A DNA stretch of 64,000 nt, taken from positions 23,250 to 87,249 of the forward strand of contig JBPOGI010000008.1 in NCBI GenBank assembly GCA_051251855.1, given 5' to 3'. How positions within the stretch are numbered: the first letter of the stretch is position 1; each line of letters starts with the position of its first letter. Source of the stretch: Roseibacillus sp. Its GTDB lineage: Bacteria; Verrucomicrobiota; Verrucomicrobiia; Verrucomicrobiales; Akkermansiaceae. Below the pieces are notes generated by a model. That model was not told where the DNA came from, ran no database searches, and worked only from the letters and a program-made list of their open reading frames with translations. This document shows, piece after piece, positions 3,424 through 7,385 of this stretch. Both the position numbers and the translations under genes were made by a program.

Positions 3424-3762
3424 CTATTCAGCTCTGGCCATTTCGGGAACAGTCCCGACAGCGTAGACATCTTCGATTGCTTGCAGTGGAATACCTCTCA
3501 GTTGAGTTTCAGCAGCAACTAGGGAGTTGCGTAGATCCCAACGATTCTCTAATTGCCCTAGGCGAATCTCCAAATTGGTAACATCACGATCGTGCTCTCG
3601 GATCCGACGCTCCACCTGCTCAATCTCGCGAACCACGTTCAACTGTTGATTCTTCATCACAGTATGAAAGACACCCGTTGCACCCAACGAAATAGCGGTG
3701 AGCACCAAGAGGGCAAACACTCCCGGATTCAAACTGGCTCTCTTCTTTTTATTTTTACTCAT
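3424..3762 (-). CDS. ftsL: FtsL-like division protein
   Basis: Basic N-terminus, single TM, coiled coil; located between rsmH and ftsI. Symbol assigned from synteny and topology. Confidence 0.7.
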   Translation of the reverse strand: MSKNKKKRASLNPGVFALLVLTAISLGATGVFHTVMKNQQLNVVREIEQVERRIREHDRDVTNLEIRLGQLENRWDLRNSLVAAETQLRGIPLQAIEDVYAVGTVPEMARAE

Positions 3763-4817
3763 CGTCTTTTAGCGAGTCGTAGCTTTGCGCTTCGCGCGCG
3801 GGTATTACGGGCGAGCTCGGCATCTCCTGCCGAAATCGCTTTGCGAGAAATCAGGTCCCAAGCGAGCTCAGGATTTGGACGTGGCTCAGGCCACTCAGGA
3901 CGGTCGATAAACTCAACACTCCCCTTTTTTAAAAATTGTTTAACGAGGCGATCCTCCAAACTGTGAAAAGTAATCACCGCCAAGATGCCACCAGGCTTCA
4001 GAACATCTTGCGCCGCCTCGAGACCAGCTGTCACCGAGTCCAACTCCGTATTCACCGCCATCCGCAACGCTTGAAAAACTCGCGTAGCAGGATGCTTACG
4101 CCCCCGTCCGCCCATCGTCTTCTCAACACACCCCGCCAACTGCAAAGTGGTAGTAAACTCTTGCTCTTCACGAGCCTTCACAATTGCCGCTGCAATTCGG
4201 CGCGACGCCTTCTCTTCTCCATAGAGAAAGAAAATGTTCGCCAACTCTTCAGCCGATCGCGTGTTCACATAGTCCGCAGCGGTTTCCCCTGCCGACTGAT
4301 TCATCCGCATATCTAGCGGACCTTCTTTTTGAAAGGAAAACCCGCGCTCAGCCTGATCGAGTTGCCAAGATGACACCCCCAAGTCTAACAAGACCCCATC
4401 GACAGACTGCGCGGGCACTACCGAACGCATTTCCGAAAAATTTCCCTGCTCAGCACGAAAGCGATCTCCAAAGACCTCCAGTCGTTTTCCAGCATAGGCG
4501 AGGGCATCGCTATCGCGGTCCATTCCGACGACTTGCGCACCCGACTCTAACAGACGCTCGCTGTGACCACCGCCACCGAGCGTTCCATCAAGAAATAGTT
4601 TATCCTCTGTAGGCTCTAGTCCCGTAAGAGTCTCATCTACCAAAACAGGTTCGTGATAGAACTCACGCTCATTAACTTCCCCACCCTGTTCGGTAGCAGC
4701 AGAGCTTTGAAAAACGTGACCCCGCCATTCCGGCACCACCGATTCCACCGTCCGTCGTATAACGGCAAGGCAGTCGGAGAAGTCGGCAAATGCCGGAATG
4801 AATGCGGGTGTCAGCAT
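3759..4817 (-). CDS. rsmH: 16S rRNA m4C1402 methyltransferase with N-terminal extension
   Basis: HEPVL, DGTLGGGGHS, DLGVSSWQLD, RGFSF, PLDMRM, HPATRVFQALR, ITFHSLEDR, RARSAKLR. Nearest in-frame ATG upstream of the conserved domain is 4817; start uncertain. Confidence 0.95.
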   Translation of the reverse strand: MLTPAFIPAFADFSDCLAVIRRTVESVVPEWRGHVFQSSAATEQGGEVNEREFYHEPVLVDETLTGLEPTEDKLFLDGTLGGGGHSERLLESGAQVVGMDRDSDALAYAGKRLEVFGDRFRAEQGNFSEMRSVVPAQSVDGVLLDLGVSSWQLDQAERGFSFQKEGPLDMRMNQSAGETAADYVNTRSAEELANIFFLYGEEKASRRIAAAIVKAREEQEFTTTLQLAGCVEKTMGGRGRKHPATRVFQALRMAVNTELDSVTAGLEAAQDVLKPGGILAVITFHSLEDRLVKQFLKKGSVEFIDRPEWPEPRPNPELAWDLISRKAISAGDAELARNTRARSAKLRLAKRR

Positions 4818-5350
4818 GTTTTTCAGTGTTCCAATCCTGTTTTTATCCAGTAAATCCAGTAGCTCGAGGGAGGTCCGCGACCTGCCCCTCACGCAAAATT
4901 TTGAAATAACGGAAAGCTGCCACCCCAAGCCCACGCTCGCACAGCGTCGCAAATCTCTGACCGGCAAGGCAGATGGCTTGCGCCGCGCGAAACAGCAGGT
5001 TTTGGGGTGACAACAGTGTTCCAGTTATCCAGTTATCCAGTAAAGTCGTCGGGAAACTGCCACCACTCCGGGCCTCACGAAGGCCCTCTCCTGACTTGAA
5101 AGTCCTTTTGGCAAGGCAGTCTTGCCGAGAGGAGGCTCTCGATTCGCGCCGGAGTGGCAGCATTGTTCCAGTGTTCCAGTTATCCAGTAAAGTCGTTGGG
5201 AAATCAGACAGGAGGACGCCGCCACCCCAAGCCTCGCAAAGGCCCGTTTTCAGCAGAAAGCACCTTTCGGCAAGGCAATCGTGCTGAGTCAGGGTTTTCG
5301 CTTGGTTTTGAGGTGACGACATTGTTCCAGTGTTCCAGTTATCCAGTAAA
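4708..5350 (-). ncRNA. Array of four putative structured RNA units separated by (ACTGGA)n linkers
   Basis: Units at 5217-5321, 5058-5162, 4916-5014 and ~4708-4825. Closing stems covary. TGCCTTGCC at 5269-5277, 5110-5118, 4963-4971 and 4764-4772. The repeat is directly visible; RNA function is inferred. Confidence 0.65.
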
Positions 5351-5355
5351 TTCAT
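4843..5355 (-). CDS. Possible 170-aa leader ORF reading through three repeat units
   Basis: ATG 11 nt after the mraZ stop; repeat spacings of 159 and 147 nt keep the frame (LLDNWxTGT...CLA three times). May be a by-product of the nucleotide repeat. Confidence 0.3.
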   Translation of the reverse strand: MNLLDNWNTGTMSSPQNQAKTLTQHDCLAERCFLLKTGLCEAWGGGVLLSDFPTTLLDNWNTGTMLPLRRESRASSRQDCLAKRTFKSGEGLREARSGGSFPTTLLDNWITGTLLSPQNLLFRAAQAICLAGQRFATLCERGLGVAAFRYFKILREGQVADLPRATGFTG

Positions 5356-5366
5356 TCTTAAGCCCC

Positions 5367-5834
5367 TTACCCAAAGTCGACTGAGTCGTAGAGGTCTTCC
5401 AAAATCTGCGCTTCCTTCGCGCGCAGTTCTTCCACATTCTTCGGAGCCACCAAATCAAAGGCTGCTCCCCGTCCAAAAAGGTGTACTGACTCCCCCGCTT
5501 CGAATCCGTGAGCACTCGCGGTCTTTTTTGGCACCGCCAACTTGCCCTGGTCATTCAAAGTCACTGACTCGCTGCCCGAGTACACCGCCTGCTTCTGCGC
5601 ATTTCGCGTTCCGGCAGGAATGGCCTCATTAGAAGCAATCGATTCAATAACAGCCTCGAAGGCCTCTTGGGTCATCGCCCGCAGAACCGGAACTTTCAGA
5701 TGCTTCCACTTCAAAAGTCGCAACTGAACCGTCTGTCCACTCGCAGGGCGCCAAGCGGAAGGCACGGAAACTCGATACTTACTATCAAGTTTATGCTCAA
5801 CAACGCCTTCAAGGCTCTGGTTTGGTACACCCAC
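5367..5834 (-). CDS. mraZ: Division/cell-wall cluster transcriptional regulator MraZ
   Basis: Two AbrB-like repeats (HKLDSKYRVSVP; TLNDQGKLAVP); first gene of the dcw cluster. GTG start at 5834 is a best guess. Confidence 0.88.
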   Translation of the reverse strand: MGVPNQSLEGVVEHKLDSKYRVSVPSAWRPASGQTVQLRLLKWKHLKVPVLRAMTQEAFEAVIESIASNEAIPAGTRNAQKQAVYSGSESVTLNDQGKLAVPKKTASAHGFEAGESVHLFGRGAAFDLVAPKNVEELRAKEAQILEDLYDSVDFG

Positions 5835-6086
5835 GGTTTCTCTTGGTTCCTTACGGTGCACAGTAGTACACAATTTGACCCTACACGGTCAATCTCTTTG
5901 TTTTCAGTACACTTCGCATTGCTTAACAATCCTTGCTAGCACAATGTTTTTAAAACTTTTACTTCGTGTCAGCGGATTATTAATAAAACTTAATTAAACT
6001 GCTGAACAGCCCACGCAGCGTCAGCATTTGCTCCTCTCTGGCACCCTTTGCCGTTTCTTTTTTTTAAAACGAGGCCAGCCTTCCCC

Positions 6087-7385
6087 GTGCGCGAAATCCT
6101 CTCTGGCTCCGGCCCCTTCCGTCATAATAACGTTCGGCTCTACGCTTGGTTCACCGTTCTCTATAACGCACGGGCCTACTACCCCATTTTCGCTATTCTC
6201 TTCCTCGACCTCGGCCTCAGCCGCGAGCAGTTCCTCACTCTCAACGCGGTCTGGGCTGCCGCCATCTTTCTACTCGAAGTCCCCTCCGGCGCTCTCGCCG
6301 ACACCATCGGCCGCAAAAAACTCCTCGTAGCTGCGGGCATCATGATGATTCTCGAGATGGCCCTCCTCCTCTTTGCCCCTCAAAACGGCGGCTGGGTTCT
6401 TCTCATGATGGTCTTCGCCAATCGACTTCTCTCAGGCGCTTCCGAAGCCTCCGCCAGCGGGGCCGACCAAGCCCTCGCCTACGACACTCTGCAGGAAAAG
6501 GGCGAGGAAGAACAATGGGACCACGTTCTCGCCACCGTCATGACCCTGCGCTCGGCAGGCTTTTTCACAGCCATGATTCTCGGCTCCCTTCTCTACGACC
6601 CCTCCATCTTAGCCAAAGTCATTCCAAACCTCGGCGACCTCGATAAGTCCCTCACTCTGCGCCTCCCCCTCGCGCTTGTCTTTATCCAAGGCATCGCCTG
6701 CCTCTTCCTCGCCCTGCGTATGCGCGACATCGAAGACAGCGACGCCGAGCGCCCCTCTTTAAAGAAAGCCTTTCGCACCACCCTCTCCGCCGGCAAGTGG
6801 CTCTTCACTACCCCCCTCGCTCTCATGGTCGTCATCGGTGGCGTGCTTGCAGACTCCTTCGCTCGCACCTTCGCCACCCTCACCTCGGACTACTTCCGCT
6901 TCATCCAAGTCCCCGAATGGCTCTTCGGATTTCTTGGCGCGGGCTTCGCCGTCGTCGGCATCTTCACCCCCAAGCTCGCCAAGACCCTTTCCCAAAAATA
7001 CTCCCCACGCACCCACCTCCTCATCATCGTCACCTGGGCCACCGGAGCCCTCCTCCTCCTCGGCCAAGCTTGGCCCTATTGGGGTATCATCCCCGCGGTC
7101 CTCACCATGATGGTCCTCTCATGGACCGACTTTCTCTGCTCGCGCGAGCTCAACAAACTCGCCGACTCCTCCCAACGCGCCACCATTCTTTCGGTCAAAG
7201 GCCTCATCTTCAACCTCGGCTACGGACTCGCTTCTCTTGGATTCGCTGGTGCTGTCGCTGGCTTCCAAAAGCAAGGCCTCACCGAAAACCAAGCCTTTCA
7301 ATCCACCCTCCTCTGGCAACCCGCCCTCCTCGCCTCCCTCATTATCGTCTTCGCCGTCTGGTCCCGCGGCGTCAAACAGCCCTAA
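6087..7385 (+). CDS. MFS transporter
   Basis: About 12 TM helices; EVPSGALADTIGRK motif A; start uncertain. Confidence 0.9.
   Translation: MREILSGSGPFRHNNVRLYAWFTVLYNARAYYPIFAILFLDLGLSREQFLTLNAVWAAAIFLLEVPSGALADTIGRKKLLVAAGIMMILEMALLLFAPQNGGWVLLMMVFANRLLSGASEASASGADQALAYDTLQEKGEEEQWDHVLATVMTLRSAGFFTAMILGSLLYDPSILAKVIPNLGDLDKSLTLRLPLALVFIQGIACLFLALRMRDIEDSDAERPSLKKAFRTTLSAGKWLFTTPLALMVVIGGVLADSFARTFATLTSDYFRFIQVPEWLFGFLGAGFAVVGIFTPKLAKTLSQKYSPRTHLLIIVTWATGALLLLGQAWPYWGIIPAVLTMMVLSWTDFLCSRELNKLADSSQRATILSVKGLIFNLGYGLASLGFAGAVAGFQKQGLTENQAFQSTLLWQPALLASLIIVFAVWSRGVKQP

Follow-up and report, generated by a model that had tools for sequence, protein, structure and literature searches.

Translation of a gene may be coupled to that of its neighbour by an occluding hairpin, or controlled by a leader ORF: the start codon lies in a stem and an upstream ORF ends close by. 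Structured repeats may also reside in open frames while the encoded peptide drifts, as exemplified by the Rickettsia RPE, intragenic REP/BIME and STRR hairpins.

At the locus of interest here, the mraW RNA motif (RF01746) is a hairpin of 107 positions whose loop reads CUUCCCC, located upstream of mraW in Actinomycetales according to the accessible part of its description (PMC2864571). The available sections of three corynebacterial reports indicate that the element is transcribed and that a 5' end maps within it or downstream of it (PMC3890552, PMC5784534, PMC4046766), and the accessible text of a 2017 paper calls its function unknown (PMC5640933). Another structured RNA of the dcw cluster, the leader sRNA UpsM of Rhodobacter sphaeroides, lies upstream of mraZ, is single and non-coding, and has a terminator, as far as the accessible portion of its report goes (PMC5089854). 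Our literature search, which mostly did not extend to subscription journals and included the supplements of PMC2864571 in part, returned no description of a Verrucomicrobial element.

Organization of the mraZ-rsmH interval

The window (the whole stretch of DNA analysed, 64,000 nt) belongs to a Roseibacillus sp. assembly of 4.96 Mb which is 95%-complete. The locus is on the minus strand, where mraZ, the interval, rsmH, a probable ftsL, an ftsI-type PBP gene and murE follow one another, with abutting starts and stops. Its features are:

5856..5892, minus strand: putative mraZ promoter, with a -35-like TTGACC and two GTG(T/C)AC boxes at a 10-nt distance; found in relatives too, upstream of mraZ
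5367..5834, minus strand: mraZ, from weak MraZ family matches and synteny; stop 5369-5367, start codon not settled, GTG 5834 likely
5323..5350, minus strand: leader 1, ACTGGA-type octamer repeats immediately 5' of the unit-1 AUG
4843..5322, minus strand: upstream ORF comprising units 1-3, 159 codons, stop-free
5217..5321, minus strand: unit 1 rod, 105 nt; stem begins at the U of the AUG (5322-5320); apical motif 5277-5269
5164..5191, minus strand: leader 2, in frame inside the upstream ORF
5058..5162, minus strand: unit 2 rod, 105 nt; apical motif 5118-5110
5017..5044, minus strand: leader 3, in frame inside the upstream ORF
4916..5014, minus strand: unit 3 rod, 99 nt; apical motif 4971-4963; CUG where the start codon would be
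4818..4854, minus strand: leader 4 (diverged), contains the upstream-ORF stop and precedes the rsmH AUG
4708..4825, minus strand: unit 4 bulged rod, encloses the rsmH AUG (4817-4815); apical motif 4772-4764
3759..4817, minus strand: rsmH, its conserved core preceded by an N-terminal extension of 54 codons; stop overlaps the start of the next gene
3762-3424, minus strand: probable ftsL, by position only
3423-1507, minus strand: ftsI-type PBP, abutting or overlapping its neighbours
1510-8, minus strand: murE, abutting or overlapping stop and start

An earlier note on this DNA had pointed out that mraZ and rsmH are normally nearly adjacent, as is indeed the case in E. coli (gap of 1 nt), and had described a ~540-nt insertion between them. 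The distance from the mraZ stop (5367) to the rsmH AUG (4817) is 549 nt, but most of it is ORF, and unit 4 lies within the rsmH coding sequence, of which it encodes the first ~36 residues. The 54-codon extension consists of this hairpin and a Gly/Ser/Glu-rich linker, and the RsmH core matches TIGR00006 (318 bits) from residue 53 onward. The upstream ORF ends at a TAA inside leader 4, 25 nt 5' of the rsmH AUG, and would be lengthened by 11 codons if an in-frame ATG at 5355 were used. MraZ (5367-5822) is divergent, scoring below the cut-off of the Pfam and all NCBIfam MraZ models; a scan of genome contigs with MraZ returned three loci only.

On the operon strand, the array is composed of four rod hairpins of ~100-120 nt, each folding as a single interrupted rod with an apical UGCCUUGCC. 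The motif TGCCTTGCC, proposed earlier to be invariant, is present in all four units at the apical positions listed above (consensus (U/A/C)GCCUUG(C/U)(C/U)), 14-15 codons downstream of the start. The arms of units 1-3, the span of unit 4 and the common length of units 1 and 2 were also as first described, but the ~28-nt leader preceding each unit had been missed and, among four small interior hairpins proposed, only GCC-GAAA-GGU occurs in a minimum-energy structure. Folding z-scores of units 1-4 are -5.7, -5.2, -4.0 and -5.6 on the minus strand (0/200 shuffles each) and -1.3, -3.5, -1.6 and -6.2 on the plus strand; strand-specific folding, another early claim, thus holds for units 1-3 but not for unit 4.

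The leaders are made of ACTGGA-type octamers with a period of 8 and without GTG. MraZ boxes have a 10-nt period in the available text of PMC12957436, and such boxes are located upstream of mraZ at this locus; the leader, which lacks GTG-core direct repeats of that period, is therefore not the MraZ operator. The GTG(T/C)AC boxes at 5856-5892 are, judging from their sequence and placement, a likely candidate for the MraZ operator of the family. Upstream of 1239 crude gene starts, the leader motif shows no enrichment, and no 16S rRNA was found in the 95%-complete assembly. One sequencing run (type guessed, contigs only) gave scattered pieces, one of them over unit 2, and was left out of the evidence; contigs cannot show RNA ends.

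Comparison with described elements

By analogy, the array resembles the mraW RNA motif, as a hairpin standing before rsmH. Both are rods of about 100-110 nt upstream of mraW/rsmH, with a variable, covarying stem and a conserved pyrimidine-rich apical motif, and the array units (99-118 nt) covary and lie directly upstream of rsmH, as in RF01746. The two differ in apical sequence (CCUUGCC in the array, CUUCCCC in the nine RF01746 alignment rows available), in host taxon (Verrucomicrobiota instead of Actinomycetales) and in organization, since the array has two to four tandem units with a leader instead of a single hairpin; in addition, its units lie in open frames. Searching 4300-6300 with RF01746 down to E 10 gave no match, the gathering score of 50 bits not being reached; the best score in the genome was 14.5 bits, on another contig, and the control exceeded the cut-off in one of 14 genomes. 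An Rfam scan of the same segment to E 10 yielded four chance matches far below cut-off, in keeping with the earlier failure to recognise an RNA family. As the array shares position and shape with RF01746 but not score, loop or taxon, we consider it to work like this motif without being filed under it.

Like UpsM, the array is a lineage-specific structured RNA heading the dcw cluster, but it is 3' of mraZ and in an ORF. It shares with occluding-hairpin coupling a buried start codon and a nearby upstream ORF end; here, however, the upstream ORF is itself built of duplicated start modules, and the RsmH of other genera carries such repeats as in-frame fusions. Open frames and a drifting peptide are also found in RPE, REP and STRR-type repeats. 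Unlike these, the array is not dispersed but confined to one conserved locus, with units that are orthologous by position and strand-biased in their G-U pairs. No cognate transposase was found within the mraZ-rsmH interval.

Selection on the RNA structure

The array DNA matches the same locus in seven of eight Roseibacillus-like congeners; the eighth is 85% complete, and mraZ was not found there either. Outside the genus, the DNA search gave three weak matches. The 27 units identified are distributed among eight genomes (4, 4, 4, 4, 2, 3, 3 and 3). Covariation was counted on sequence-based alignments, and counts across genomes overstate independence because all genomes are kin. In the basal stem, 83.4% of cells are paired (29 units, including two from genus g9), as opposed to 38-64% in slid registers, and both sides have changed at 13 of its 14 pairs; none of 500 shuffles reaches the paired level. 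The upper stems covary at 16 of 30 pairs among the 12 first and second units and at 20 of 30 among the eight penultimate units, counts that lean favourable because the structures were predicted from the same alignments. In 240 basal cells from the 20 non-final units there are 44 G-U against 0 A-C, and the acting strand is therefore the mRNA strand. Two early observations, that the arms differ between copies yet stay paired and that G-U pairs favour RNA over a DNA cruciform, are borne out by these counts.

Position-matched units are on average more alike across the four 4-unit genomes (identity 0.72) than are units within a genome (0.46), which indicates that each copy is kept separately. The Leu codon CTT is unchanged in 27 of 27 units. 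From these substitution patterns, we conclude that the four units are under selection as single-stranded RNA structure.

Dispersed copies, or arms without covariation, had been named at the outset as findings that would count against a structured RNA. The arms clearly covary; BLAST detected no further array copy in the genome, and a covariance model recovered the four units at 105-138 bits plus a single leader-like match of 27.6 bits. The latter (G000:C7:590101-590177, L223) has leader-like CTGGAA repeats and a perfect 12-bp hairpin followed by a U-rich tail, perhaps a terminator. Ten covariance-model matches outside the training genera were looked at: two are at the rsmH locus (genus g33), and the eight located elsewhere resemble chance or short ACTG repeats. 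Metagenome matches to the leader pattern were discarded as chance, since all 53 lacked both a nearby mraZ or rsmH and a unit. Short ACTGAAA-type tandem repeats in L234, L237 and L238, with a long hairpin in L234, resemble the array leader and may be its source.

Coding status of the interval

The region had initially been regarded as non-coding, but its units lie in frames that are open across the genus, the last one forming the 5' end of rsmH. In 8/8 genomes, non-final units make up a single ORF of 90-168 codons starting at an AUG at the foot of unit 1, in the frame of which the apical motif always reads C-L-A or a variant. These ORFs contain no stop in 8/8 genomes, compared with ~30 expected from 706 substitutions (a rough estimate), and the other sense frames of the array have one to eight stops each. 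Spacings between non-final units are multiples of three in 12 of 12 cases (147, 159, 162 or 165); indels between distant pairs are so in 24 of 52, from alignments that are unreliable. AUG is retained in first units (8/8) and final units (7/7) and in only two of the 12 internal units, as would be expected from use of the outer starts alone. The upstream ORF stops between -7 and +60 nt from the rsmH AUG in 8/8 genomes, and the final unit opens the rsmH frame in 7/8, a different hairpin being found there in congener L005. ATG is absent within 15 codons of the RsmH core in all eight genomes, two of which have GTG or TTG there. The start, the open frame and the stop near the next start expected of a leader ORF are all conserved. 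Hence the interval looks translated rather than non-coding, on the evidence of its frames.

The encoded amino acids are another matter. Values of pN/pS are 0.61-1.03 for the upstream ORF and 0.59-1.12 for the extension, compared with 0.06-0.39 for mraZ and 0.10-0.35 for the rsmH core, and substitutions are evenly spread over the three codon positions. Synonymous divergence between the closest pairs is 0.23-0.39 in the array versus 0.57-0.69 in flanking genes, and pS is mostly lower in the array than in these genes. As gauged from substitutions, the amino acids of the ORF and of the extension drift, and the peptide is weakly constrained.

The mraZ-rsmH junction across the family

We examined 130 loci with both genes in the family (database f1), which we take to be the Akkermansiaceae of GTDB. 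These loci derive from best-scoring RsmH matches and are not a random sample; duplicates were dropped, as were three loci without mraZ on the fragment, and for z-scores a single 150-nt window at each locus was compared with 15 shuffles. An rsmH frame open along at least 80% of the interval, often through hairpin repeats, is seen in 107 of the 130 loci; the corresponding counts for the other two frames are 12 and 11. The 23 exceptions are from the genus studied here (8) and genus g15 (15).

In genera g9 and g33 there is one rod only, with a related apical motif, beginning just after the AUG; the covariance model recovered g33 at this locus without training on that genus. In genera g5, g8 and g14, tandem hairpins are fused to RsmH as extensions of 122-317 codons. 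Their repeats (~105-114 nt, e.g. in L019, L106, L115 and L133) have fixed loops, CGGGAC or GGCUGG, read as GGG ACA in 128 of 148 and GGC TGG in 138 of 142 copies, and are spaced by multiples of three in 100 of 104 cases. In a fixed register, all 11 positions pair above shuffles around the GGGAC loop (101 copies), whereas the result is marginal for the GGCUGG loop (95 copies). In 5/5 genomes, the g5/g8 repeat is found only at rsmH. Stems are short (~12-17 bp) in the short repeats of other genera, and reach ~23 nearly contiguous pairs in the sister-genus alignment, in which only two of 23 pairs covary because the arms are nearly invariant.

In genus g15, the first unit has its own open frame in 11/11 two-unit loci, starting with ATG (4) or CTG (7). 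These loci (L107, L108, L141, L145, L151, L158, L178, L180 and L182-L184) have a leader of their own, and several show a stop inside the second leader, as in the present genome. An ATG lies within 15 codons of the core in 17 of 18 g15, nine of 19 g33 and eight of 17 g11 loci; the hairpin could therefore be bypassed there. The hairpin signal is weak in genera g12 and g3 (z<-2 in 1/14 and 3/12, respectively), in which the extension is open, and none of 13 loci tested outside the family has a z-score below -2.

Two other arrangements were encountered. RsmH proteins of genus g3 (12 loci; e.g. L191:841-1506, L193:847-1509, L198:2392-3042) carry an in-frame N-terminal region of 138-219 codons, which matches Y1_Tnp (PF01797) in three of six cases tested, one above cut-off (24.5 bits), and has an H-V-H motif in several; by these matches it is apparently a degenerate HUH transposase domain joined to RsmH. 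In L203, L204, L206, L208, L209, L211 and L214, from other classes of the phylum, a separate ORF of ~55-75 codons lies between mraZ and rsmH, this ORF being alike among the f23 loci.

A proposed ribosome relay and its alternatives

The element is likely to act as RNA within translated sequence, whatever its effector. The proposal of a tandem cis-regulatory element, made in the earlier note, survives in that the array appears to act at the RNA level, is strand-specific (units 1-3 fold), locus-bound and tied to the division operon; its non-coding nature does not. The reading we are inclined to favour, with reservations, is that of a translated cis-acting mRNA element which would relay translation, its hairpins gating or coupling rsmH and the downstream division genes. 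Each unit would be a duplicate of the rsmH translation-start module, namely a leader, a start codon and a ~100-nt rod. As rods pairing from the AUG onward would hinder free initiation, translation would be relayed from mraZ to the upstream ORF and then to rsmH: ribosomes leaving mraZ would initiate at the upstream ORF and unfold units 1-3 on their way; terminating in or close to the final leader, they would expose unit 4 for translation of rsmH, which would in turn be coupled to ftsL, ftsI and murE. The peptides would be by-products. Under low ribosome traffic the rods would refold and become substrates of a ligand, at a guess RNase III (stems), a protein (apical motif) or Rho (naked RNA). Refolding would set the output of downstream division genes relative to the repressor MraZ, and extra units would tune the response.

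The genome has a gene for RNase III and two for Rho-like proteins, which score 470 and 424 bits, both under the cut-off of 509, and are located at G000:C9:334517-335740 and G000:C1:49872-50981 (L216, L217). CsrA, considered as a reader of the folded state, was not found in the 95%-complete genome. Besides the ATGs close to the core in other genera, the different hairpin of L005, the weak signal in g12 and g3 and the indel counts, all given above, further points weigh against the relay. Coupling alone does not explain the near-invariant apical motif, the leader or the multiplicity of units, and the transcript 5' end within or after the corynebacterial mraW motif hints, by analogy, at a promoter or processing role instead.

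Processing is the first alternative: RNase III or another nuclease would cut the rods, constitutively or on signal, and separate mraZ from the downstream genes, possibly freeing ~100-nt small RNAs, with the open frame only preventing polarity. The long stems, most of all those of sister genera, and the RNase III gene would suit such a role, as would the dcw-leader sRNA UpsM (PMC5089854, accessible part) and RNase III cleavage of mraZ mRNA in C. glutamicum, known from a partly available source. Yet cleavage within unit 4 would destroy the message for rsmH, no terminator-like site closing the units was found, and the short repeats of other genera have stems of modest length, so that processing is an unlikely main function.

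A second alternative is a multivalent operator, with RsmH, MraZ or another protein binding the apical motif and the leader to repress its own operon, and copies adding cooperativity. The invariant CTT, the fixed distance between motif and start, the fixed loop codons of other genera and the HUH/Y1-like domain fused to RsmH in g3 all point in this direction. Nevertheless, loop sequences vary between genera, RsmH acts on 30S subunits and not on naked rRNA (from a source available in part), CsrA is missing from the gene complement recovered, and AUG retention is left unexplained; we regard an operator as quite unlikely on its own. It is compatible with the relay, as its ligand step.

An extension of the relay, which we hold to be decidedly doubtful, is that the array serves as a feedback sensor of ribosome state heading the division operon. 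Non-AUG initiation increases when the RsmH mark (m4C1402) is lost, according to the accessible part of PMC2831307. At the start position, ten of the 12 internal units have AUG or a codon differing from it by one base, and the first unit has CUG there in seven of the 11 two-unit loci of g15. Under-methylated ribosomes would start at more units and open the last hairpin more often, giving more RsmH, FtsL and FtsI. The UG of internal start-position codons is, however, constrained by the stem anyway.

It is improbable that the repeat peptide is itself the functional product, be it a repeat protein, a multi-core precursor or a stalling peptide. The frame is open, C-L-A is always in frame, ten related proteins of 103-180 aa are predicted (one from R. 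persicicus) and pN/pS is often slightly below 1. Against this, substitutions are even across codon positions, and the leader recurs in different contexts, 5' of the first AUG, in frame, and in a frame containing a stop; the upstream-ORF peptide has no Pfam or NCBIfam match, and its AlphaFold model has a mean pLDDT of 37.8, a weak test from only 11 sequences.

Short ACTG-type tandem repeats elsewhere in the family and the weak REP-transposase-like domain at the mraZ-rsmH junction of g3 might suggest a selfish or neutral repeat (REP/RPE/MITE/STRR-like) that came to lie in frame and is simply tolerated. But the repeat occupies one locus per genome (the present one having only the extra 27.6-bit leader-like match), is restricted to rsmH in g5/g8, and consists of units that are orthologous by position and more conserved than synonymous sites. 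Very improbable overall, this explanation is largely refuted as present-day biology.

Finally, a DNA-level element, that is internal promoters or extra MraZ operators, could draw on the TGG-core direct repeats and on 5' ends near the corynebacterial mraW motif, but it is the most improbable of these readings, as no sigma-70-like site was found in 4600-6050 (by a scan which missed the mraZ promoter too), the leader has a period of 8 against 10 for MraZ boxes, and G-U-biased covariation requires a single strand.

Significance

A hairpin before rsmH was already known in Actinobacteria, and the present lineage offers a natural experiment in which the element has been amplified one to eight times. 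The frame and the outer starts are kept while the peptide drifts, which makes a testable claim of the idea that the element operates while ribosomes traverse it. It also illustrates how ORFs are retained for being translated, not for their product, and predicts RsmH proteins with 40-320-residue extensions derived from RNA repeats. If the sensor extension were true, it would link ribosome maturation to cell division and give the mraW motif class a testable function. The finding also bears on how MraZ output is decoupled from that of FtsL and FtsI; according to the accessible part of a study of V. spinosum, the cluster holding FtsL/FtsI is essential in that species and mraW is not (PMC12283558).
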